Source: Rhizophagus irregularis (taxonomy: Eukaryota). Taken from it: a stretch of 64,000 nucleotides of DNA. The notes beneath the pieces are model-generated. The model did no database searches. It was not told where the DNA came from and saw only the letters and a list, made by a program, of their open reading frames with translations. Location: NCBI RefSeq assembly GCF_026210795.1, contig NC_089429.1, forward strand, positions 3,162,001 to 3,226,000, in the 5' to 3' direction. Made by a program: the position numbers and the translations under genes. Of this stretch, positions 7,681 through 23,408 are shown piece after piece; the stretch's first letter is position 1; every line of letters begins with the position of its first letter.

Positions 7681-9243
7681 TTTTGTGCTGAAGTTTATTT
7701 GTGAAACTCTTGATGATTTTTTTCAACACTTTTTTTTTCAGATTGTTTCATTCTTTATAGTAGATTTTAATAAACAGAAGAATAGTAAAATTAGTAAATA
7801 AAGTAGAACTTTCTTTCGATTTATATAAAAGTTACGTTTAACGATCAATATAAAAATGTATTGCAGGTTTTATAAAAATTACGAGAATTGTTTATTGAAA
7901 AAATAAAATTATTTTTACGAAAAAAATTCGATTGATGGAGTTTTATAAGCAGATTTTATAAAAATTATAAGAATTATTTATCAAAAAAATAAAATTATTT
8001 TTGTGAAAAAAATTCGATTGATGGAGCTCTATAAAATTCAAAATTCAAAATAAGCTTCCTGGAAAAAAGTCTATTTGATAAAAATAAAACCAAAATTTGA
8101 TTTAAAAGTTAATTAATCGTTAAAAAAAGTTTAATTGAAATTAGACTTTTATTACTTTTATCAAATCAATTACTAACGGATCAAATTTAACCAAAAATTT
8201 TAAATTAAAAAAAAAAATTTCATGATTGAAAATTTAATTAATTGAAATCTCGAAATTAAACTTTTATTAAATCAATTACTAACAGATCAAATTTAACCGA
8301 AAATTTCAAATTAAAAAAAAAATTTCATAAAATTTTAATATCAAGAGAAAAATTGACTTCATTTGTCAAAATTTCGTTAAATTTTAAAGTATATATTAAT
8401 TATAACTGATTCTTTGTCAAATTTTATAAAACATGACTAGAAGAAGATCGATTAATCAAATTATGGGTTCGGAAAGGATAGCAAACTGACTATCTTCTAG
8501 AAGGTTTAGCAAAAAAAGAACCAAAGTCCAGTTCCTTGTTATTGTGACAAATGTAATGGAAAACTGGTTATATTACGAACCAAAATGCTTCATGAAGCGG
8601 TGGAAAATACAACTGACTCGAATCTTAATAGTAGTTTGGCTTTATTGTTACTAATTTATCAAGAAGAGGATTTGACAATAACTTCGTTAGAAGAAAATCT
8701 GATAAATGAAGATATTTTGATATCTCCATTAAATAAAGAAATTTCGGTAATAACTCCTTTTGAAGAAGATTCGACAACAACTCCATTAAATGAAAAAGAT
8801 AATTCAACAACTCCAGAATACAACGAAAACAAATATATTTTTTTACCTTGAAGCCGTACAAGAAGCTACACAAATCGCCCACAAATTATGCTCGAACATT
8901 TAGGAACAGAAGATTTGAGCAATTCTGATTATGAACAACATACTGATACTTCTTCCTCTTCTGATGGCAATGAGTCAGATGATGGAACTTTTGCCGATAC
9001 TTTTGAAAATTATTTACCGCCAGATTTTAAATCATATCAAGAGAAAGTAAAAATGACAATCGATGATAAATTTTCATGGATTTTATTGTGGATAATAACC
9101 TTTCAAAAAAAGTTCAATCTCCCTGAAACAGCAACCGAATCTCAACTAAAATTCATGAAAATAGTGTTAAAAGAAATTGGCGGAGATATTTACGATAGCT
9201 TTCCTGACTCTCTATATCTGGCAAGAATTCAACTTGGCCTGAA

Positions 9244-9703
9244 TAGTGCTCTGAAACGAGTCGAGTTGACTCGCGAGTTGGTCGAGTCGAGGTCGCGTTG
9301 AAAATTACAATCAAATCGAATCGATTCGAGTCGAGTTAATAATTTAATAAAATCGAGTCGAGTCGAGTTAAGCCGAATTAAACATAATTCCGGCCAAATT
9401 TATGGAATTTCCTTTTTTGGAAATTATGTTACACAAAATCCGAGACGAAAATTTTTTGAAAATTACAAAAATGGAATTTTGTAGAATGGCTATCGCCAAA
9501 AAAAGGAAATGATCAGCATAGCCGAATTAAAATCACGTGATTTAATTCAACTCGACTCGATTCGGTTTAACGGGCCAACTCGATTCGAATCGAGTCGAGG
9601 TTTATATTTTTATAATTTTAACTCGATTCGACTCATTCATTTAAGCTCGAGTCGAATCGAGTTTACATATAACTCGACTCGACTCGGCTCGTTCGGAGCT
9701 CTA
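9244..9703. mobile_element. hAT-type MITE with GAGTC/GACTC subterminal repeats
   Basis: Ends TAGTGCTCTGAA / TTCGGAGCTCTA; 8-bp TSD GGCCTGAA/GGTCTGAA. Removal restores the transposase frame IQLGL-KDRFYSF. Confidence 0.9.
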
Positions 9704-10013
9704 GGTCTGAAAGATCGTTTCTATAGTTTCGTGTCATGTCCGAAATGTCATAAATTATATAACAAGACAGACATGGACGAAATTCAAAAAAATGACAGTA
9801 TCGGTATCATAAGATGCAGTCACGTCGAATTTCCAAATTCGGCGTCTTGAAGGATGAAATCGTATCAAATGGTCTTGGCTGAAAAAGAGGTTAAAAAGCC
9901 AGAATTAATATATCCGTTTGTACTGATTCATCAACAATTGGAAGTTCTATATTATCGGCCTCACTTTGAACGGTTACTTCAACATGTATCAAATTGTCGA
10001 CGATTCGATAATA

Positions 10014-10289
10014 GGCCAAAAGAAATAAAATTATTCATTTCTCATGAAAAAAATTGCTAAATTTGATCTAGCCGTAGAAAAAAATATTTTTTAATAAAAA
10101 TTTAGCCGATTCCTAGAAGTTAATTGGTTGATTTAATAAATTTTGCGGGTCATCGAATGGAAAAAAAAATTATTTTTTTATGATTATGATTGGTCAAAAC
10201 TAAAATTACATGACTAAATAAAATATCTTTTTTTAACATTTACATGACCCGCCCAGTTATGGAAAATGAATAATTTTATTTACTTGGCC
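10014..10289. mobile_element. MITE with 3-bp TSD (PIF/Harbinger-like)
   Basis: TIR GGCCAA..AAATAAAATTATTCATTT / AAATGAATAATTTTATTTACTTGGCC; TSD ATA. Removal restores FDNILTDIYDG. Confidence 0.85.
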
Positions 10290-12342
10290 ATATACTGACC
10301 GATATATATGACGGTCAAATCTGGAAAACATTCAGAGAAGCTGATGATGAAAATTCAGCTAAAATTTTCTGACCAGAAGTAGCTGATTCACATCTAGGAC
10401 TGATGATAAACCTTGATTGGTTCCAGCCTTACGATGGTATATTTTATAGTATCGGGTAATTTACGTGGCTATCTGTAATTTACCCCCGTGATATTTGGTT
10501 CAAGTGCGAAAATTTGCTGGTTCTCGGTCTACTACCAGGACCGAACGAAGTAAGCTTGCACAAGATTAATCATTATATTGCGCCTATTGTCAATGAATTA
10601 GAGTTACTATAGAGTGGAATAACTTTAAATCGAACATTTGAGTGCCAAAACGGGAAAAATATTCGTGCAGCTTTAGTACTAATTTTATGCGATATTCCTG
10701 CTACTCAGAAAATATGCGGGCATATTTCAGCTTTAGTTTCTTGCCATCGGTATATGAAATGAACAAATTATGAAGATCACCAACATAATTTTGCAGGTAT
10801 GGAGGATATGGAGAATTAGTTCATTACTCGCGATTTGACCAAACATTATCGGAATGCTCTTGCATAGCGAAGTTGCAATTCCACCAATTTAAGAAAGAAT
10901 TTCGTTAGTGAAAAAGAAGTTAGATGGTCGGAGTTACTTCAATTGCCGTACTTTGACCTAATTCGTTTTATTATTGTAGATCCAATGCACTGCTTATTCT
11001 TAGGAATTGCAAGGTGGATAATAAAGAGGATTTGGATTGATAAGGGTGTTTTAATCCTGAATAATCTAAAGAAGATTCAAGAAAAATGAATCAATTCAAA
11101 GTACCGGCTGATTTGGGATGAATTCCTGGAAATATTGAGTGTAGAGAAGGGTTTTTGAACTATACAGCCGATCAGTGGCAAATTTTCTTTATGATCTACA
11201 CAACTACCTCATTGTGAGAACATTTACCATCAAAAGATCGAAAAATCTTAACACATTTCGTTAGAGTTTGTTCTATTTTAGTAAGCTGAATTTTAGAAAT
11301 TGAATTAATGGAAGAAGCTCATGAGAGGCTAATTAAAATAATTAAGCTTATTGAAGTACACTATGGAAGAGTAAAAATTACGCCTAATCTTCACCTTTTA
11401 CTCTATTTATGCGATTGTTTGAATGATTTTGGTTCATTATATGCATTTTGGTGTTTTTCATTTGAGCATATGAATAAAATACTCAGTAAGATATTCTTTT
11501 TTTTTACTTTTTTACTTTATTTGGACATTGTTAATCTTATTTTTAATAATTTTTAAGGCTCGTTGCCAACAAGTAATAGACAAATTGAACCGGAAATAAT
11601 GCGTCAGATAATAAATGATAATCTAATTGGAGATATCATTAGTTCTGACATTCAAACGAAAGGTTTAGAATTGCTTGAAGATCGACCCACAACTGGTTCA
11701 ATATCGGCTGCAGACCAATTTTCTTCAGATGAACTAGAGCAGTTTTGGCTAAATGCTAAAAACATACAGGAATCGACTATTACTGGATGCGAGCCATTTC
11801 CTGAAGAAATGCTAAAGCCTAGTTCTGAAGCAATAATGACTGAGTCAATGCTCGAACTGATGGTTACTTTTTATAATGCTTCTTATATTGAAACGTATAA
11901 GTTTAACAAATCAGCAGATGAAATTATCCAAGATTCTATAATAATTCAAGTAAAGATAAATCAATTTGGAAGATGCTGAATTGGTTCTGAAGTATTTGGT
12001 TTTGCAATGTCAGTTCGACATACAAAAAGCTCGTATGTCCTAGCCAAATTTATAACTAGTGATAGGGAAGTCGACAGTTATCCTGGACAAATTCAATACT
12101 TCTTTAAACATACAGTCAACTTGCCAAATGGACAAATAGAACATAATTTGGCATATATTCGTTGGTATCGACCAGCTAGTACGAGTAAAAGTCAATATTA
12201 TTTTCATATTAATGATTAAGACAAGAGCTGTAACGTCGAATTGTGGAAATCTGAATTTTATGATAAAAGCCGTGACTGTATTATTCCCGTACATAATATC
12301 CTTTGTCAATTTATACTATCAAAATATCAAATTTCTACTCGG

Positions 12343-12944
12343 TGTCACCTACGTCTGCCATCCGTGAGTAAACACAATTTCTTATATTCACTTTATTACG
12401 CTTAGTTTAGATTTTTCTTATTCTCTTATTTTCTTTCGTTATATCCTTTTTCATATATAACGTTCCATTCCTTTATTAACTCATAACTTTAACTTACGAA
12501 CTACAATAATTCCTTCTTACAGTAAATAAACTTCACATAATAACTTTTAATTTTACTTTGGACTGTTAATTTCATATTAGAATCATTAATTATTAATCGT
12601 TGTTCATAGTGAAACCACTATGATAACTCTTTATTAATATTAATTTCATCCTGAGTCAAGATACCAAATCGAGACTGCAGAATTCCTACTGAATTCCACT
12701 CTTATTTATATTTTTAAAAAAAATCATTTCTAATATTATCTTTAATCTATGACTCAACTTGAATAATTATAACTCATAGATTATCATCTTTCCATCTGAT
12801 TCCATCTATTTCCATCTAATCTTTAAGTCACGCTAAATTATTTATAGCCAAACTAAACTAAATATAACTAATCTAAATATAAATAACTATAAATAACTAA
12901 ACTATAAATAAATACTTATAAATAGATATTATATAATTATAACA
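12343..12944 (-). repeat. Putative 3' LTR
   Basis: Minus strand begins TGTTATAAT and ends GTGACA at the junction with the interrupted CACTA transposase. The partner LTR is not in the window. Confidence 0.5.
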
Positions 12945-13090
12945 TCATATTCTCTAATTATCTCGGTTAAATATTCTTCCATCGGTTAAATGTTTATCCA
13001 TATTCCATTTGGTCCTTTATTTATCCGATCACGTGATTATCTTGATTTCATAGGTTACAGTTATCTCTTCCAAGAAAAATTTGAGTCCCA

Positions 13091-14278
13091 TCAAATTCTA
13101 ATTATAACTTCAAAATTTGATCTATCGATATATTCCTTTAATAATTCTCTATTTACTGGTGTTTTCTGTATTCTTCCTTCCATAGTCTTGATTCTATAAG
13201 ATCCTTTAGAAACTTTTTCGTATATATAATAAGATCCTTTCCATTTTTCTTCTAATTTTCCAGACCATTGTTTTTCTTTTGCTGCATCGTAATATAATAC
13301 TTTATCTCCTATCTGAAATTTCTTCTTTATTTTATTTTTCTTATCATGATATAACTTTTGTTTCTCTTAAGATTTTTCAATATTTTCTTTAGCTTGATTT
13401 CTAATGCTTGGTAATTCCTCAATTAGACTATTAATTCTTTGTGTTATTGTAACATTTTCATCCTCTAAATTCAATAATGTCTTCATTTCCCTTCCATATA
13501 TTAAATATCCTGATTTTAACTTCATCGAATCATTCTTTTTTGTTCTATAAGCAAATAAAACTCCTGGTACTTTTAAATCCCAATCTTCAACATTACTTAA
13601 TTTCACCAATGATTCACATAATATCTTATTGAATCTTTCAATTAATCCATTCATTTTTGGGTGATAAAACATTAAAAAATTATGTTTTATCTGAAATTCC
13701 TCCATCAACAATTTTACTAATTTATTATTAAAATGGCTTCCCCTATCACTTAATATCTTCTTTGGATATCCATGTCTGCATATTATATCTTCATAAATGA
13801 ATCTTGCAATTTCTTTAGCATCTGCTGTTTCTAAAGCTCTAGCTTCTGGCCATTTCGTAAAATAATCCATAGCTGTAACTATGTATCTATTATTTCTTCC
13901 TGTTATTGGTAATGGTCCCACAACATTTATTCCAATCTGATAAAATGGTTCTTTAACTCTAATTACATTTAATTCATGTTTTCCAATCGGGTTTCCTCTT
14001 CTTTGACAACTATCGCATGATTTAACATATATTTCTATATCTCACCTTATTCCTTTCCAATAATATTTCTCTTTAACTTTTTCATGTGTTGCATTTATTC
14101 CAAAATGTCCAGATAATTCATGGTCATGTGCAATATACATTAATCCTTTGAACTCATATTTTCTTATTACTCTCAAATCTTTATTATCTTTTATTCTATA
14201 TAACAAGCCATCTTTTATTCTATAATGTTGTTCATTATCTATATTTTCAATTATCTCGTTATATTTATCTTCTTCCAT
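13091..14278 (-). pseudogene. Gypsy integrase (H2C2 zinc finger, rve core, GPY/F-like tail)
   Basis: HDHELSGHFG..YYWKG..VKSCDSCQ, GPLP..NRYIVTAMDYFTKWPEA, SDRGSHF and NGLIERFN; internal stops. Confidence 0.9.
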
Positions 14279-14586
14279 TAACTAATATGTCTTCTATTTC
14301 TTCTTCAAAAGGTAAAATAAACCTTATATTTTTATCTTCAAATAATACGCAATGATAACTTGTATTCTTATGTATAATATAAATATATATTCCTATCCCA
14401 ATATTTTCAGTAGTCATTTTACTTTTCCAATAGTTTTTTGACTTGTTTATATACATTTCTTTAACTTGTGTTTTCATTCCTAATCTTTATATTCTTATAT
14501 TTTTCCTTATTCTCATAAATGTTTAACATTCTTTAAATATCCTAATCATATCCCTATATTCTCCTCTATTTCATATTCCTAATATT

Positions 14587-15312
14587 TTAATCTCCCTGTT
14601 CCAAAAATCCTTTGACCCATTTGTATACTTTTTTCCAACTTTTGTCATCATTTTTAATTTTAATTCTTTTATATTTTTCTTTGTTCTCATAAATATTCTG
14701 ATGCTCTTTAAACATTTTCACCATATCCATATATTCCTCTTCATTTAACGTTTCATATGATGTTTTATGTCCTTTATTACTTTTCTTAGTTTCTCTTTCA
14801 ATATAGTTATTCCAACATTCTTTATTTTCTAAGAAAATTATTATCGCATTATCTATAATATCTTTATATTTAAATATCTCTTTTTCCATTTTATGATTCC
14901 TATATGGAGTAATATATCCTCTATCAAAACTTTTGGTCTTTTGATAAAAGTATTTACAATATGGTGACTTATCTAATATTATAATATCTTCATCCATAAA
15001 TTCAACTATTCTCTTATTAATTTCCTCTACTACTTGTTTTCTAAATAACCATTCATATTCCTTCAAAGGCTTTTCAAATCTTTTATCATCATTTCTTTTT
15101 CTTTTAAACTTATTAAATATTATTTTTAAGCCGTCCTTTTCTTCTAACCGTTTAATCATATTTTCTACTATAGTGGACTTTTCTGTACCATCTGGTCCGT
15201 CAATAATAACAACTTGTGGTTTATTCTTTCTTCCTAATTTCTTTAATAATTCTTTTTCTGTATTATCTTCTAAGTTCAACAATATTGCTTCTTTATCATT
15301 AAAATATTTCAT
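14587..15312 (-). CDS. Thymidylate / deoxynucleoside-monophosphate kinase-like P-loop domain inside Gypsy pol
   Basis: VIIDGPDGTEKSTI (GxDGxGKS/T P-loop with a G>E change), IILDKSPY..YFYQ (DRS..Y-like motif) and an IIIFLE strand. Same frame as the upstream RNase H ORF, separated by one TAG. Confidence 0.75.
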   Translation of the reverse strand: MKYFNDKEAILLNLEDNTEKELLKKLGRKNKPQVVIIDGPDGTEKSTIVENMIKRLEEKDGLKIIFNKFKRKRNDDKRFEKPLKEYEWLFRKQVVEEINKRIVEFMDEDIIILDKSPYCKYFYQKTKSFDRGYITPYRNHKMEKEIFKYKDIIDNAIIIFLENKECWNNYIERETKKSNKGHKTSYETLNEEEYMDMVKMFKEHQNIYENKEKYKRIKIKNDDKSWKKVYKWVKGFLEQGD

Positions 15313-15638
15313 ATTGTCCTATTTTCCTCTAAATCTTTTAGCTTCATACCATTTATTTTCAAATTTAACATATTTCAACTTTTTCTCTTTATTATACTCC
15401 ATTTTCATTATTCCTTGATCCAAGCTTTCAAAGTCCCTTTTTATAACTTTCTCCTCAAATTTTAATCTTGATAATGCATCTGCATTCTTATTTTCTTTAC
15501 CACTTCTATGTATCACCTCAAAATCATACTGTTGTAACTCCATTACCCATCTCGCTCTTCTCCCTGTAGGTACTTTAGCATTCATTAATCCTTTCAGTGC
15601 AGAATGATCTGTTATAACTGTAAATTTTCTTCCTGCTA

Positions 15639-16491
15639 CCCTATAAAAAGTATTTATATTTAAAATATAATTAAAAACTTTTTAAAATATATTTAAAATA
15701 TACTTAAAATATATTTAATTTAAAAATTGCGAAATACTTATAATATACTTAAAATGTATTTAAAATTATCTTAAAATATATTTCTAATATATTTAATTTT
15801 TGCCCAAATACTTAAAATATACTTAAATTATATTTAAATTAAAATTTAAGTATATTATAGATATATTTTTTACATACTTAAAATATTCTTATAATATATT
15901 TCATAATATATTTTAAGTATATTTTGAGTATGTAAAAAATATACTTATAATAATCTTATAATATACTTAAATTTTAATTTAAATATAATTTGCAAAAATT
16001 AAATATATTAGACATATATTTTAAGATAATTTTAAGTATATTTTAGATATATTAAAAATATATTACAAGTATTTTGCAATTTTTAAATTAAGATAAATCT
16101 AATTGTAACAGCCTGTTACGCGTCTTATTTGTAACAACCCCAATTTTATCCAATTAAAATTTAAGATCAGACGTAATGTAAACAAAAACAAAAGATCAGT
16201 TGTGTAACTAAGACAAAAGAATTTTTTAAAAATTTCAAGAAACTGCTTATAACTTAAAATTTTGTCTATGAAACTGTCTTAAGTACATTAAGTAAAAGTT
16301 TTTCAAATTAAATTTTGCATATAAAAATTTTATTTGTAAAATACACACTAAATTTATTATTAAAAAAAAAATAAAAAAAAGTTGTTACAAATAAGATATG
16401 TAACAGGCTGTTACAAATACATTTATTCTTTAAATTAAGTATATTTTAAATATATTTTAAGTATATTTTAAGTATAGTACTTTTTATAGGG
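15639..16491. mobile_element. Non-autonomous TIR element, CCC..GGG termini, 3-bp TSD
   Basis: TIR CCCTATAAAAAGTA / TACTTTTTATAGGG; TSD CTA. Removal restores HKFLA-GRKFTVITDH. Confidence 0.88.
16104..16415. mobile_element. MITE nested in the previous MITE
   Basis: TIR TGTAACAGCCTGTTAC..TCTTATTTGTAACAAC / GTTGTTACAAATAAGA..GTAACAGGCTGTTACA; TSD unclear. Confidence 0.75.
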
Positions 16492-17145
16492 CTAAGAACT
16501 TATGAAAATGTTTAATCCCCCAAAATATTGCTAAACATTCTAATTCCGTTATTGGATAGTTCTTTTCTACTCCAACTAAACTCCTACTAGCATAAGCTAT
16601 AACAAATTCTTTGTTTTCTTCATTTTTCTGGGATAGTACTGCTCCCAATCCTTCTTCTGATGCATCTGTTATTAATATAAACTCCTTCTCAAAATTTGGA
16701 TAATCTAATACTGGTTTTTCCATTAATTTTATTTTCAGTTCTTCAAATGCTTCTTGTTGTTTCTCTGTCCATTTAAATGGTACATCCTTCTTAACTAAGT
16801 GATATAAAGGCTTTGCTATTTTTGCAAAATTCTTTATAAATCTTCTGTAATATGAACACAATCCTAAAAATAATCTCACTTATGTAACAGTTTCTGGTAT
16901 TTTTATTTCTTTGATTTTCTCTATTTTCTTCACATCTGGTTTTAAACTATCCCTTCCAACTATATGTCCTAAAAATTCAATATTCCTCTTACCAAACTTA
17001 GTTACATTTCTTCAATTTCACAATCAGGTTATTTTCTCTTAATTTGTTCAATACTTTATCAATATATTCTATATATTCTTCAAAATCTTTTAAGTAAATC
17101 ATTATATCATCTAAATACACTATTACAAATTCTTTACTGAAACTT

Positions 17146-19350
17146 GGGGTTATTCGGCGACATCGATTCGATATCAAAATTACATCGAAATTACAACACA
17201 TCGATGTCTTAAAAATATTATAACAAAAATCGAATTGATGACGTTAAGTTAGTTTTTACTGGATCGATGTGATTTTGATTCACCATAACATCGCAGGAAT
17301 ATCATTCTGACAATGATATGACATATAATTTGATATTATATCTATATTATATTAATATAATGCTGATATCAGAATAACATTTGTTAGAATATTTTTCATA
17401 AATAAAACATTTAATTGATGTTATAACTGCAACATAGTGATTAAAATTAACATCAAAATAACATTAATAAAATATTGAATCAATATCATAACTGCATCAT
17501 AATGGTACAGATTAAAGTATTTAATTGATATCATATAATGATCTTAATAACAATATTATAACATTAAAATGATACTAAAATGATATTTTATTGATATAAA
17601 AATTTCTTTTATTTATTAAATTTTTTAAATTACATTCAACTCATCATATCAATTGATTGAATGGATTTGAATATATTTTTTTGAAAAGACATGAAATACA
17701 TTTACAATTTACTAATGGTAATTCCCGATATAATAATTAAAATTGGACTCGTAAAAGAGGATGACCAACTTTGATTTGATTATTATGGTTAAATAAAAGA
17801 CATCATGATGTTGGATGTGAAGCAAACGTCATTCATTAGTGCTGTTATTAATTATTACAAATTACAAAATACTTATAATTTTTGTTTCATACCTGCTATA
17901 TTTTACACGCTAAATAATAACAAGATATGTTCACATGCTTCACCCGATACCTAAAAAAAAAAAGAAAAAGAATAGTTAGAAACTGTCCATAATAATAAAC
18001 AAAATAAAAAAAATAAAAATTCGTACCGAATCTTTAGTTTTTTCCGTTCCTCAGAATCCACCTGAACCTATAAAAAAAAAGGAATGGTTAGCGACCGTTC
18101 CATAATATTAAAAAAAAAATAAAAACTAAACCATTCATTCATTAATAGTTCACAATATATCAGACTATTTTTGATCACCTGATATCGCCTATGTTTAAAA
18201 TACTGCGGTAAAACACTAAAAACATCACCAGAAGATTAAATGTTGAATCGATTGATCTTTTACCATTCTGTTGTATTTCAATCAAATAAGGTTTAACAAT
18301 ATGATTCATAACATAATTGAAACTTGACAATTTTTAAAGAAACAATAAATACATACTTACGTGTAAAGTTTATTCACAAAGGCGGTCTGTATTTTATGAG
18401 CTTCAGCCACAAAGTATTCCTAAGTACGTAAACGCACATAAAAGTGATAAAACATTCTTATAGGTAATTTAATTATTTTGAAAGATGCTACAAAATGTAA
18501 AAAAAGGAACGTTATCATTGATTGTCAAACTTAAGTATCAATGTCTATATATCTGAGCTAGCTAATATTACAAGAGATGGCTACAAAATATGCAAAAAAA
18601 AGCGCTCGCCTCAGAATTGCTAAAATTATTTGGAAGCTCTTCTGTTTTATACATTTTCATTTTGAGAGGTCGGCCAGTTAAGATTTCCCGATATCAGTCT
18701 TATCAGTCTCTGGCAATCCACTTAACTTGATATTTCAATTATAAATTAAGTCTGACGGTGCTACATAATAATTACAATCATAAGTAAATTCCTGACCTTC
18801 AAAATTAAATGTGTTCAGCTGGTTATATATTATATATAATTAATATTGTATTTTTACAGCAGTCACAATAATATAATAATCAATAGCTGACCGTTATGTT
18901 TAGTATCTTACAACAGCAAGCCAAAAGATCCATATGGTAAAACACGTATTTAGTATTTGCGCACCTATTTAATAGCTCTATCTAATAAACCGTTACTATT
19001 TAATATAAAGTTTCTTCGTATTACTATAACATATATAATAAAATATTAAAAATCACTTAACAAAATGTTTTTGATAAATTTTGATAAAAAATAAGCAAAT
19101 TACTTCAGTTTGCGTTCGAAAGAAAAACACCAGAACGCATTTTTGAAAAATAGAAAAATAAACAAATCGTATATATTTAAGTAGCTATTTTTAGATGCAT
19201 ATGGCAACTGATTTTTTATTGGTCAATTTTTAAATTCAAATCATATATATTTGAGTAGCTATTTTTAGGTGCATATGACAACTGATTTTTTATTGGTCAA
19301 TTTTTAAATTGCGAATCTTAGCTTATAGTTGGGTTTCTTCTGAAAGATAT
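17146..19350. mobile_element. Unclassified degenerate transposon-derived segment truncating the Gypsy RT
   Basis: Abrupt junction with RT, TGATAT/ATATCA-rich subterminal-like motifs (resembling 3715-3885), and decayed spliced fragments on the minus strand. Confidence 0.35.
19163..19310. repeat. 74-bp direct duplication
   Basis: CAAATC..AGTAGCTATTTTTAG.TGCATATG.CAACTGATTTTTTATTGGTCAATTTTTAAATT occurs twice. Confidence 0.85.
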
Positions 19351-19489
19351 ATAGTGTTGTAGGTAAGGATGGCGCCGAAATTGCTTTTCCAAATCTGCAG
19401 TATTGCGGATTTAAGAATTGAATTGCGCATATGAGTCCGCATATCCGCAATGAATCCGCATATCCGCAATGAATCTGCATATCCGCAAT

Positions 19490-19733
19490 TAAGGTTGCTT
19501 GTCTAAACCTCTTCAAAATCCTACGATTAGTTTCGTCAAAATTTTACTATAGATTTATTATAGTTTCGGCAAAGTTTCGGCAGTTTCGGCATTTATAATA
19601 AGTTTCGGCAGTTTCGCTTTTCTCCAAAGTTTCGCCAGTTTTTTAATATAACTTTAATATAGTTTCGGCAGAATTTCGCTTTTCGGCGAAACGCCATCTT
19701 GCCTAAACCCCTAGGTTTCAGCAAGCAACCTTA
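19490..19733. mobile_element. hAT-type MITE (TAAGGTTGCTTG family), copy 1
   Basis: TIR TAAGGTTGCTTG / CAAGCAACCTTA; perfect 8-bp TSD TCCGCAAT. Confidence 0.92.
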
Positions 19734-20152
19734 TCCGCAATGAATCCGCAAATCCGCAATGAATCCGCAAATCCGCAATGAATCCGCAAGTCCGTAATGA
19801 ATCTGCAAATCAATACTGTATCGCAAATCCGCAATGAATCCGCAAGTCCGTAATGAATCCGCAAATCAATACTGTATCGCAAATCCGCAATGAATCCGCA
19901 AGTCCGTAATGAATCCGCAAATCAATACTGTATCGCAAATCCGCAATGAATCCGCAAGTCCGTAATGAATCCGCAAATCAATACTGTATCGCAAATCTGC
20001 AATGAATCCGCAAGTCCGTAATGAATCTGCAAATCAATACTGTATCGCAAATCCGCAATGAATCCGCAAGTTCGCAATGAATCCGCAAATCAATACTGTA
20101 TCGCAAATCCGCAATGAATCCGTAAATCAATACTGTATCGCAAATCTGCAAT
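19734..20152. repeat. Subterminal tandem array built from GAATCCGCAA units (~56-bp period)
   Basis: Repeated GCAAATCAATACTGTATCGCAAATCCGCAATGAATCCGCAAGTCCGTAATGAATCC. Confidence 0.9.
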
Positions 20153-20388
20153 GTTAAATAAAATAATATCAAGTAAAAAACCATCAATTCAAAATAAAGA
20201 ATTCGTCATCCCGACATATTAAAAATTGTTAAAATTAGAAGTGTTATTTTTATAATTTTTTTTTGTCAAAGTTATTATACTGAATTAAACATACTATTTA
20301 TTCATCACAATCAACTTCGTCTGATGATGATATCATGCTATACCAAGACTTCTTTGATTCAATTTTATACACTTTTTACTCGTAATAT

Positions 20389-20815
20389 TTCTGGACAATT
20401 TTGTCCACTTTTTTCTATCATTTTTGGACATCCATCGCTTCTGGACAATTTTGTCCACTTTTTTTTCTATCATTTTTGGACATCCATCGCTTCTGGACAA
20501 TTTTGTCCACTTTTTTTTCTATCATTTTTGGACATCCATCGCTTCTGGACAATTTTGTCCACTTTTTTTCTATCATTTTTGGACATCCATCGCTTCTGGA
20601 CAATTTTGTCCACTTTTTTTTCTATCATTTTTGAACATCCATCGCTTCTGTCCACTTTTTTCTATCATTTTTGGACGTCCATCGCTTCCGGACAATTCTG
20701 TCCACTTTTTTTCTATCATTTTTGGACATCCATCGCTTCTGGACAATTTTGTCCACTTTTTTTCTATCATTTTTGGACATCCATCGCTTCTGGACAATTT
20801 TGTCCACTTTTTTTT
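20389..20815. repeat. ~51-bp tandem array containing the palindrome TGGACAATTTTGTCCA
   Basis: About 8 units of TCTGGACAATTTTGTCCACTTTTTT(T)CTATCATTTTTGGACATCCATCGCT. Confidence 0.9.
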
Positions 20816-21042
20816 CTTGTATCATTTCTGGTCACCTTATTCCTCGTATTGTTTCTGGACAATTTTGTTCAATTTTTCTCGTCCAGTTAAATTTACAAAT
20901 TTTCACATTATTGAAATTTAAACTTCACAATTTACAATTAGGCGTGATCTTAATCAATCAACATCTTGTACTACTAAATCAAACTTTAAAACGATATTGA
21001 TGACAAACTCTTTTAATTTCAAGTTTTGCTCTTTATAACGTC

Positions 21043-23408
21043 ATGTCAAGCGGTCCTTCTAAGGTAAGCAAAGTCGACCACCATCAGATGTATGGTGTAA
21101 TCATATGATACAAGGTAACATGCAGTCGAGAGGACACTATTCAGCGACGTGTAGTTACTGTCGACAATACTGGAGACAAGGAAGGCCCCAAGTCCTCAGT
21201 GCACATTTGGCAAACCACTGTAAAAAATGCCCCGATGATGTTTCATTGTATTTTGCCAAAATTGTCGGGAAAAATCTTGCTAAAGAAGAGGAAAAAGCGC
21301 AGATGAAGATGAATCAGATTATCCTAACAAAAGGGTTCGACAAACGGGAATTAAGAATTTTTACGGAGGAGGTAAAATAGAAAAAGGACGGAGTGATGAA
21401 TTAGACCGGAGGGTGATAACGAAAGCCTACGTGATGTGCAACATACCGCCCTTTTAGCACAATCGATAATCCTTGGTTTATCGACATGATAAAAGCGCTG
21501 GAGCCAGGATACGATCCACCTTCGCGACGAGTACTAAATGGTACTTTATTGGAGGCGGAATTATCCAGAGTCAATGCACGAGTCAACAATGAATTAGAAA
21601 AAGAGTCTAATTTTACTATCGGTAAATCTATAATTTCTATAATTGCTTCAAAATATTTTATTAAAAAAATAACTATCCATATATTTTTTATTAGCTCTTG
21701 ATGGTTGGACAGACCCTCGAGGGAATAGCTTATGGGCGTTTATTTTGCTGGACACCATCGAGAAAGGAATATCTATTACAACTTGAAGACCTTTCTAAAA
21801 ATTCACATACCGCTGAATATTTATCAAAAGTTATAAATGATATAATTTGTAAAGTGGGTATAAGCAAAATTGTCGCTATTGTCAGTGACAATGCTGCCAA
21901 TGTCGCAGGTGCCCGTCGATTAATCACGAATGAATATCCATCCATTATCAATATACGATGCATCGCCCATTGCATCAATCTGATAAGTAGTGATATTGTC
22001 AAAGTAGATCAAGTTAAATGTCTTGTAAAACGAGCAAATATTTTAACAAGATACTTCAAAAATTCAACCCTTGCCAGCACTTGGCTTAAAGAAGCGATTG
22101 ATGCAAAAAATATTGCAGGTGGAGGGCTGAAAACGTACATCGAAACAAGATGGACGACAGTCCATGAATGTACATCTTCGGTGTACAGATTAAAAGATGC
22201 TTTATTACATGTACGTATACTTTATATTTAAATTAATAATAATTAAACCTAATACAAAAATGTTTATTCAATTAGGTCCTGGACAATCATGAACGCGAAA
22301 TCTCTAATGAAGCTGTAAAAGCAATTTTGAAAAAAAGAGGGTTTTTTGATGACATTCGTATTTTATCGGATATTTTGGAGCCGATAAAAAAAGCAATTCT
22401 CATGTTAGAAGGAAGTAATGTAACTTTAGCAGATTGTTATCTGCATCTTCTTCGTATCGCAGCATTTTTTAAGTCAATGCCAACTGATGATTATAAAGAG
22501 TTAAGAAACTCTTGTATTAGCATTTTTAATAAGCGGTAATGTATTAAGTTAGTATCTTTAATAGAAGATTCAAAATTAATGTTTAATTTTAAATATTTTT
22601 TTAATAGATATAAAGAGTTTGACGAGGATATCTATTTGTTAGGTTTCTTCCTTCATCCTAAATACCGAGGTAATTATTTTTTTTATTGTTATTTAAATTC
22701 ATTTAATAATATAATTTTGCAAATTTGTTAGGACATGGAATGCGTAATAATCAATTTGAGCGTCTTAGAAAGTGTGCCCTTCGAATCTGGAAAAACCTTG
22801 GGCATAAAAAAAATTCTGGATTAGAACTTGATGCACAACTTCGTGCATACTTTGATAATTCTGAACCATATAACACGTCTTATTCAGTTCATGACACAGC
22901 TTACCATTGGTGGAATTCCATAGTTGATGGGAAATTTTCTTCTCTTTCGCGGCTAGCTAAAGTAATATTTTCAATAACCCCACACTCGGCAAGTTGTGAA
23001 AGATTATTTTCAGCCATAGGATGGCTCTTTGGTAAGAGACGTATAAATTTGCAACCAGAAACTATAGAGACAATGGCGAAAATATATCTTTATTCTCTCA
23101 AACATGCTAAAAAAGACTTAAATTATACAAGTAACGGTGATAGCAATTCAAAGTTAGATGATGATATTCAACTCATGCTGAATACAGTATTTGAAGAAGA
23201 AGAAGAAATTATGAGTGAGAATGATGATGATGATAGTTTTAATGAACATCAATCTGATGAAACAAATATGAATGATGAAACATTAGATATTGAAAGCACG
23301 GTAGATCTAGGACCATGGGTCTTTATTGATAATTCTATACTTCCAACTATTACTCGAAGATATGATAGTGATGGCGAAGAGGAATGGGATCCGGAACAAT
23401 TAAACTAA
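21043..23408 (+). pseudogene. hAT transposase (BED zinc finger, DUF659-like, RNase H-like core, dimerisation domain), spliced, frameshifted
   Basis: SDVW..ATCSYC..HLANHCKKCP, VSDNAANV, RCIAHCINL, ETRW, FLHPKY and WWNS..LSRLAKVIFSITPHSASCERLFS. Short GT-AG introns near 21622, 22211, 22536 and 22669; apparent frameshifts in the first exon. Confidence 0.9.

Follow-up and report, generated by a model that had tools for sequence, protein, structure and literature searches.

A thymidylate/deoxynucleoside kinase-like gene carried as stable cargo by a Ty3/Gypsy retrotransposon lineage of Glomeraceae

A Ty3/Gypsy retrotransposon lineage of Glomeraceae carries, as stable cargo and as a feature of the family, a predicted kinase gene that is under purifying selection like the core enzymes of the element. 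The copy described here lies in a 64,000-nucleotide stretch of Rhizophagus irregularis DNA (hereafter the window; contig NC_089429.1, positions 3,162,001 to 3,226,000). The encoded domain looks, as judged from a structure model, and probably works like a deoxynucleoside monophosphate (dNMP) or deoxynucleoside (dN) kinase, yet it stands outside the canonical dTMP-kinase family. The reading that we favour, at a probability of roughly 55%, is that of an NTP-dependent dNMP/deoxynucleoside kinase delivered together with reverse transcriptase (RT) or integrase (IN), which would raise the dNTP supply for reverse transcription. The nucleotide-metabolism enzyme described so far as cargo of LTR elements is dUTPase, and no report of a nucleotide kinase in an LTR retrotransposon was found in the literature searched, with subscription journals, Repbase and supplements (possible TE libraries) lying outside that search. 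In the accessible portions of two sources, PMC3248453 contains no occurrence of 'kinase' and PMC11075540 uses the word for expanded host genes only. Another captured domain, an m6A demethylase, has been described in orchid Gypsy elements (PMC9289625). The kinase is a real, selected and apparently unreported cargo in an unusually organised Gypsy lineage.

Throughout the 64-kb window the features of the element are oriented on the minus strand, and they are listed below by position.

12343..13059, minus strand: putative 3' LTR, 717 bp, TGTAACC...GGTGACA with TG...CA ends; a contig diverges behind 12342
13060..13071, minus strand: stretch resembling a polypurine tract, immediately ahead of the initial TG of the LTR, a layout common to loci L006, L010, L013 and L020
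13091..14278, minus strand: integrase, encoded in an ORF apart from the others and with its own Met; Pfam matches over the cut-off to Integrase_H2C2 (39.8 bits) and rve (39.1 bits)
14265..14417, minus strand: 50-codon ORF (MTTENIG...) between kinase and integrase, its stop overlapping the integrase ATG; no Pfam family
14422..14523, minus strand: degenerate second copy of the 3' end of the kinase, 75% to 14596-14697
14587..15318, minus strand: kinase domain, assigned to the thymidylate/deoxynucleoside kinase superfamily and continuing the reading frame of the RT-RNase H C-terminus; Gly>Glu lesion in the P-loop; fold taken from homologue P0013
14941..14976, minus strand: DKSPY..(F/Y)YQ motif LDKSPYCKYFYQ, at the position of the dTMP-kinase DRX motif (alignment)
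15172..15210, minus strand: P-loop strand and loop VIIDGPDGTEKST, family form GxDGxGK[ST] (motif scoring)
15319..15321, minus strand: premature TAG interrupting the linker from RNase H to kinase; close homologues have Trp
15322..15638, minus strand: C-terminal part of RNase H to NADALSR, plus linker; Pfam RT_RNaseH 33.7 bits
15639..16491, no strand assigned: MITE inside RNase H, 853 bp, with a 14-bp perfect terminal inverted repeat, a 3-bp CTA target duplication and AT-rich 11-bp repeats
16492..17140, minus strand: remains of RT (C-terminal half) and the N-terminal part of RNase H; one frameshift falls near 17000, one stop at 16880-16882

The original prediction had followed the RNase H frame through one TAG into a domain of about 240 residues, and this layout is borne out: the frame passes NADALSR (15486-15466), meets the TAG at 15321-15319 and continues into a 243-codon ORF, counted stop to stop, that contains IIIFLE at 14844-14827 and ends at 14589-14587. 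The TAG was taken to be a mutated TGG, in agreement with the Trp at that column in close homologues (KGKWDDMKYF in P0001), and the integrase expected downstream is present at 14278-13091. In Pfam searches of the window, RT_RNaseH_2 is matched at 122 bits, whereas the integrase gave no chromodomain match. The window copy is a dead element, as had been proposed. The P-loop carries Glu where the homologues align with Gly, RT and integrase contain stops (in the integrase in-frame at 14042-14044 and 13367-13369, together with Asn at the first catalytic Asp position), the linker is interrupted by the TAG, RNase H is split by the MITE (contigs from two runs jump over 856 bases at this site), and the element is truncated at its 5' side, where RT homology stops near 17132-17140. 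Protease (PR), gag and a 5' LTR were absent from the window, as were a second copy of the putative LTR and the other flank of the insertion site; among the metagenome loci introduced below, none contained an LTR pair or a clear PBS. Over 12200-17300, transitions make up most of the differences between the window and related copies, and C-to-T decay of one strand or the other is compatible with the disabling lesions; one homologue, P0232, has the P-loop Gly>Glu change too, independently or by descent. A polyA RNA run yielded 161 matching reads from 11 million, of which 97% continue into unlike sequence, at a mean depth below 4 over the coding parts, so that these reads have no firm bearing on expression.

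The summed contig depth of the MITE is about 10 times that of the retroelement, and an inverted pair within it (16093-16138/16381-16426) suggests a nested element. Broken plus-strand ORFs at 8500-12342 resemble a decayed DNA transposase, a label given by eye without a Pfam match; since they end exactly at the LTR edge, the retroelement probably inserted into this transposase. Tandem arrays occupy 19412-20213 and 20357-20868 (19/56-bp and about 51-bp periods), and a hAT-like transposase remnant (DUF659, 66 bits) lies on the plus strand at 21063-22231.

That a Gypsy lineage had captured a nucleotide-metabolism enzyme was the central claim of the original prediction, and stable capture of the predicted kinase is supported across copies. 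Of 155 candidate stretches in a metagenome scan, 23 were confirmed as loci, and in 21 of these the kinase has RNase H upstream and/or integrase downstream, the remaining two being short. Homology searches with the window domain gave 75 members out of 601 candidates close to it in length and another 35 out of 2619 longer candidates, making 110 proteins, for which the only organism names given are Rhizophagus irregularis, R. clarus, R. diaphanus and Glomus cerebriforme; in 36 of the 110, a single protein contains both the RNase H end and the kinase. Copies with an intact P-loop, which the prediction had suggested seeking, are common, with 75/110 homologues retaining GxDGxGK[ST], 7 altered and 28 unmatched by the pattern. 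The proposed dN/dS comparison was made by the Nei-Gojobori method on the loci and the window (pairs with 0.03<pS<0.6) and gave a median of 0.27 for the kinase (132/276 pairs unsaturated; range 0.045-0.62), indicative of purifying selection, beside 0.29 for RT (7/15 pairs), 0.22 for RNase H (23/36) and 0.27 for integrase (70/105), in a setting where pairs are non-independent and AT-rich third positions saturate early. Between the window and L001, the values were 0.12 for the kinase and 0.13 for the integrase. Kinase identity also tracks integrase identity (rho 0.64, 15 loci, p 0.001, 999 permutations) and RNase H identity (rho 0.48, 9 loci, p 0.004, permutation). The window copy, broken and with a real nested insertion nearby, might by itself pass for a one-off insertion or a passively carried host fragment; this extremely improbable explanation is refuted by the position beside RNase H or integrase in 21/23 loci, by dN/dS values equal to those of the core enzymes, and by identities that follow both of them.

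Even relatives at about 25-30% identity keep the P-loop Asp, Gly and Lys without exception. The DR(S)..Y motif that had been expected does not occur: DKSPY is present family-wide instead (95/110, with 4 variants, 11 unmatched and DR in 0), Lys being found in 99/99 scored homologues and kept in relatives at 25-30% identity. The DK motif is in register with the DR of other TMK-like matches, and its YQ end with DRYxxxxxAYQ. Because every scored copy carries DK, the enzyme is not a canonical dTMP kinase. Deoxynucleoside kinases have a catalytic Glu after strand 2 and an ERS/DRS Arg; compared with these, the family shows NxFKRxR behind strand 2, and where the dNK-like rows P0171/P0160 have their ERS/DRS position it carries DKS. 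The basic residues K72, R73, R75, R93, R103, R133 and R175 are invariant. P-loop, DRX and LID are the conserved motifs of dTMP kinases (PMC8679000, accessible portion), and dTMP kinases and PPK2 are reported to depend on the DRX arginine for catalysis, which is replaced in an inactive PPK3 subunit (PMC12995831, accessible portion). One R. irregularis family, with 47 cluster members, looks young on sequence grounds: nine 593-aa kinase-IN copies are 96.6-99.0% identical to P0101, and 8/9 have an intact P-loop.

The assignment to thymidylate/deoxynucleoside-type kinases is upheld by fold, but by neither the DR motif nor curated cut-offs. A structure model (pLDDT 90.6) was built from P0013, which is 64% identical to the window domain, and compared with 48,161 representative chains. 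S. aureus TMK was the best match (Z 15.2, rmsd 3.3, 181 aligned; in another comparison Z 15.7, rmsd 2.9, 178 aligned), with human dGK (Z 14.6, rmsd 3.4, 196 aligned) and Giardia dAK (Z 14.5, 3.8, 200) close by, and NadR-type kinases (Z 13.3-13.4) and PPK2 (Z 11.7, 10.4, 9.6) ranked lower. Foldseek likewise returned deoxynucleoside and thymidylate kinases, and BFVD viral dTMP/dN kinases with phage dTMP kinases ranking high. Structural identity to dTMP/deoxynucleoside kinases is 10-18%. As TMK and dNK folds tie, with NadR-type kinases next, the fold does not fix the substrate. Pfam Thymidylate_kin was detected at E<=0.1 in 35/35 aligned members, although most Pfam matches are confined to the P-loop; the window domain alone reached E 0.4, with weak P-loop matches in Pfam and PDB sequence searches, and P0013 scored 24.1 bits against a cut-off of 27. 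TIGR00041 gave 19-30 bits in five homologues against a cut-off of 83.25 and no match in the window copy, and Pfam dNK gave a full-length but weak match (E 1e-3, 19 bits vs cut-off 27). FtsY headed the PDB profile search on its P-loop alone and was rejected, fold searches not being in support.

For the viral origin that had been raised as a possibility, there is modest support from the best profile. PHROG 761, a phage thymidylate kinase family, ranked highest for 5/5 proteins tested (E 1e-7 to 8e-15; P0013 E 2e-13 over residues 46-184, P0182 E 8e-15). Against this, tblastn of phage records gave no clear match: the best was E 0.02 for P0013, P0206 had none at E 0.1, and none covered over 80% of the query. 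A search of the ESM Atlas gave only generic TMK/dNK/NadR-like clusters and Nudix-plus-P-loop clusters. When 1.84 billion representatives were searched with a profile, 83 matches came up at E<=0.001, Nudix-kinase fusions included, and a further search gave 31 matches among 5548 candidates. The fusions are relatives at 28-43% identity (P0206 has 43% to the window domain over 235 residues), and P0121, P0122, P0142, P0182 and P0193 match the Nudix box (PF00293) at 36.7-43.8 bits against a cut-off of 21.1; a model of P0193 (pLDDT 91.4) matches both Nudix and TMK structures. The window protein lacks the Nudix box, and the Glomeraceae form keeps only the Nudix tail: its N-terminal extension of about 50 residues aligns with the Nudix-to-kinase linker, and a strand-helix-helix pattern is common to both. 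From this alignment and pattern, we infer that the kinase derives from a Nudix-kinase fusion by loss of the Nudix part. In the tree, the Nudix forms lie outside the Glomeraceae-type clade (support 0.95 with P0053 left out), the basal nodes being weak (0.36 and 0.22). No relatives were found in viral contigs, and prokaryote genomes gave 115 candidate stretches with 0 confirmed. Many versions of the Nudix-kinase proteins in the P0182 cluster and its neighbours are 86-96% identical and often truncated, which would fit a multicopy mobile element.

The picture of a single RT-RNase H-kinase-integrase polyprotein is not supported: the integrase frame is closed upstream in 15/15 loci. In the window, the kinase ends in its own stop and the integrase is a separate ORF, with the 50-codon ORF between them, so that the kinase is not a mid-polyprotein domain. 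In all 15 loci showing an integrase start, a stop lies 0-17 codons before the Met at the homologous position. The integrase ATG falls -14 to +8 nt from the upstream ORF stop in 14/17 cases, in all three frames (exceptions L004 at -20, L017 at +32 and L008 with none), and an ORF-opening ATG lies within 12 nt of the kinase stop in 14/18 scored sequences (exceptions the window, L001, L003 and L008), against about 3% expected at random positions under a roughly matched null; these counts come from loci related to one another, many of them short and some broken (e.g. L014, L019, L020), so that some 'separate ORF' junctions may be decay. The junctions take the forms ATGA, TAATG, TAAATG and short overlaps. 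Among 20 proteins with RT and kinase, none includes integrase, and RNase H is fused to the kinase in 5 and separate from it in 6 of the 11 loci showing both. The placement of the kinase thus varies, being fused to RNase H in some lineages, to integrase in the P0101 family and free-standing in others. In a single example, L013, the protease also has its own ORF, in the order PR-RT-RH-kinase-IN. Kinase-integrase fusions in P0042, P0059, P0084, P0086 and P0091 were excluded from the fusion counts as probable gene-prediction joins because the junction residues are absent.

An integrase ATG abutting the upstream stop suggests stop-restart translation, in which integrase would be made by termination-reinitiation rather than from one Pol polyprotein; overlaps of the UAAUG/AUGA type after long ORFs occur in termination-reinitiation in viruses and SART1 (PMC10275272, accessible portion). 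Programmed frameshifting as the sole link from kinase to integrase is the less favoured option, given a constant Met position in loci that between them use all three frames, and splicing may join the two as an alternative to stop-restart. The slot before the integrase holds further small ORFs. An ORF of 47-52 codons is conserved in the window, L001, L002, L004, L005 and L010 (56-86% identity, 21 invariant columns, no Pfam family) and is joined to kinase and integrase by stop-start overlaps in most loci, and L003 and L012 have a coiled-coil-like ORF in this position. In a sister lineage, an F-box ORF directly follows the kinase and precedes the integrase (L017:670-1086, 24.7 bits vs 20.5; L016:945-1127), suggesting that the slot takes host-interaction cargo. 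Free-standing P0013-type kinases in L007:3-386 and P0147 are preceded by a coiled-coil-like or cysteine-rich ORF, not by RNase H, and may belong to larger elements or to a different element type with the same kinase-integrase pair. In L013:4240-6288, integrase and a purine tract are followed after about 1.6 kb by an ORF resembling the start of gag-containing proteins (e.g. P0103), the arrangement that a collapsed LTR should give; L013 yielded no PBS.

Under the supply reading, separate ORFs would be translated from one RNA by termination-reinitiation, and the kinase would reach the particle through its RT or integrase fusion. There it would phosphorylate a deoxynucleoside or its monophosphate from NTP, with Lys in place of the Arg clamp and with dTMP as the first guess in an element of about 27% GC, and would raise the local dNTP supply for the reverse transcription of the element. 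The dUTPase of fungal Gypsy elements provides a precedent for nucleotide-pool cargo (PMC2864245; also PMC6431247, both in their accessible portions). Points against this reading are that the DRX Arg is Lys in 99/99, that scores are far under the curated cut-offs, and that a single kinase step alone would not yield a dNTP. The DK in place of an essential DR is also what would be expected of a weak or dead nucleotide-binding module with a structural or RNA-binding role, for example as a tether of RT and integrase to particle RNA; the invariant basic residues could bind nucleic acid, and the domain swaps between the RT end and the integrase start. This is nonetheless rather unlikely, given the invariance of the P-loop Asp, Gly and Lys at about 25-30% identity, the partnership of relatives with Nudix hydrolases and the lack of RNase H fusion in 6/11 loci. 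The Nudix boxes of those relatives, intact in the fusions, lend themselves to a different and quite unlikely role as a counter-defence or nucleotide-sanitising enzyme, with or without a Nudix partner, acting on NAD precursors or on nucleotides (damaged, modified or signalling) that would otherwise stand in the way of the element. The structural matches include AbmG, a kinase of modified nucleosides, and NadR-type kinases (Z 13.3-13.8); these and the F-box ORF at the same site in sister loci agree with such a role, but the Glomeraceae form has only the tail and not the catalytic box of Nudix, and TMK/dNK folds outrank NadR.

AM fungi are rich in polyphosphate, and a polyphosphate-dependent kinase could regenerate (d)NTPs from these stores. 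Polyphosphate kinases with a basic cleft have arisen by exaptation of dTMP-kinase paralogues (PPK3; PMC12995831, accessible portion), and the kinase family has an invariant basic cluster; the idea is improbable, however, as PPK2 folds score below both TMK and dNK and as PPK2 and active PPK3 need the DRX Arg (same source and portion), which is absent here. The basic cluster might also serve a polynucleotide 5'-kinase processing primer or cDNA ends for the element, and Nudix-kinase relatives do weakly match phage enzymes of this kind (PHROG 505 E 6e-5; tblastn E 3e-3 over 72 residues), but none appeared in the top 50 representative folds and PHROG 761 scores far higher, which leaves this proposal very improbable. 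A broader picture, speculative and rather unlikely in its entirety, would make the Glomeromycotina Gypsy lineage a polycistronic virus-like retroelement, in which protease, RT-RNase H, a phage-related kinase, accessory proteins (F-box) and integrase are stop-restart cistrons, and a DK kinase from a Nudix-kinase module regenerates particle dNTPs, possibly from polyphosphate.

Comparison with known systems separates what is shared from what is particular to this lineage. One pol ORF for PR, RT, RNase H and integrase is usual in Ty3/Gypsy elements, though not strictly defining. The RT-RNase H of P0076 has Ty3 Gag-Pol as its best PDB match (E 2.9e-103), with a caulimovirus next (3e-65). The element resembles Ty3/Gypsy (e.g. 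yeast Ty3) in the order PR-RT-RH-IN (in L013; RT-RH-IN in the window), the H2C2 and rve integrase, and a putative TG...CA LTR with a purine tract, but it differs by its extra kinase, by integrase (in L013 also protease) in ORFs with their own Met, and by small ORFs before the integrase. Lentiviral dUTPase sits at the RNase H-integrase position. With dUTPase-bearing LTR elements (Postia, Phanerochaete, Tuber; planarian Burro) and retroviruses, the lineage shares a nucleotide-metabolism enzyme at a variable position in or beside Pol (PMC2864245, PMC6431247, accessible portions), the enzyme here being a P-loop kinase, not a dUTPase, and either RNase H-fused, integrase-fused or free. The modelled kinase matches dTMP kinases (PF02223, TIGR00041) and deoxynucleoside kinases (PF01712) in fold (Z 14.5-15.7), and GxDGxGK[ST] and the YQ end of the motif are shared; unlike them, it has DK for DR, lies under all curated cut-offs and bears an extension of 50 residues at its N-terminus, alignable with a Nudix tail. 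PHROG 761 is its best profile, but no phage record spans over 80% of the query. In comparison with polyphosphate kinases (PPK2/PPK3), there are invariant basic residues, no DRX Arg, and a PPK2 fold at Z 11.7. The UAAUG/AUGA-type overlaps recall stop-restart systems (caliciviruses, influenza B, CHV1 and the non-LTR element SART1; PMC10275272, accessible portion), although here, as read from sequence, they would separate the enzymes of an LTR-element pol.

Many of the genes that databases label 'thymidylate kinase' in Rhizophagus and in soil metagenomes are, by this finding, genes of transposons. The split pol raises the question of how RT and integrase are packaged without a Gag-Pol polyprotein, and the invariant DK site lets one ask of a natural protein whether another residue can stand in for the 'essential' DRX arginine. 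An active kinase would mean that a retrotransposon controls the supply of its own nucleotides, in the manner of large DNA viruses, and would let one small soluble enzyme test whether dNTPs limit retrotransposition in the multinucleate hyphae of mycorrhizal fungi.
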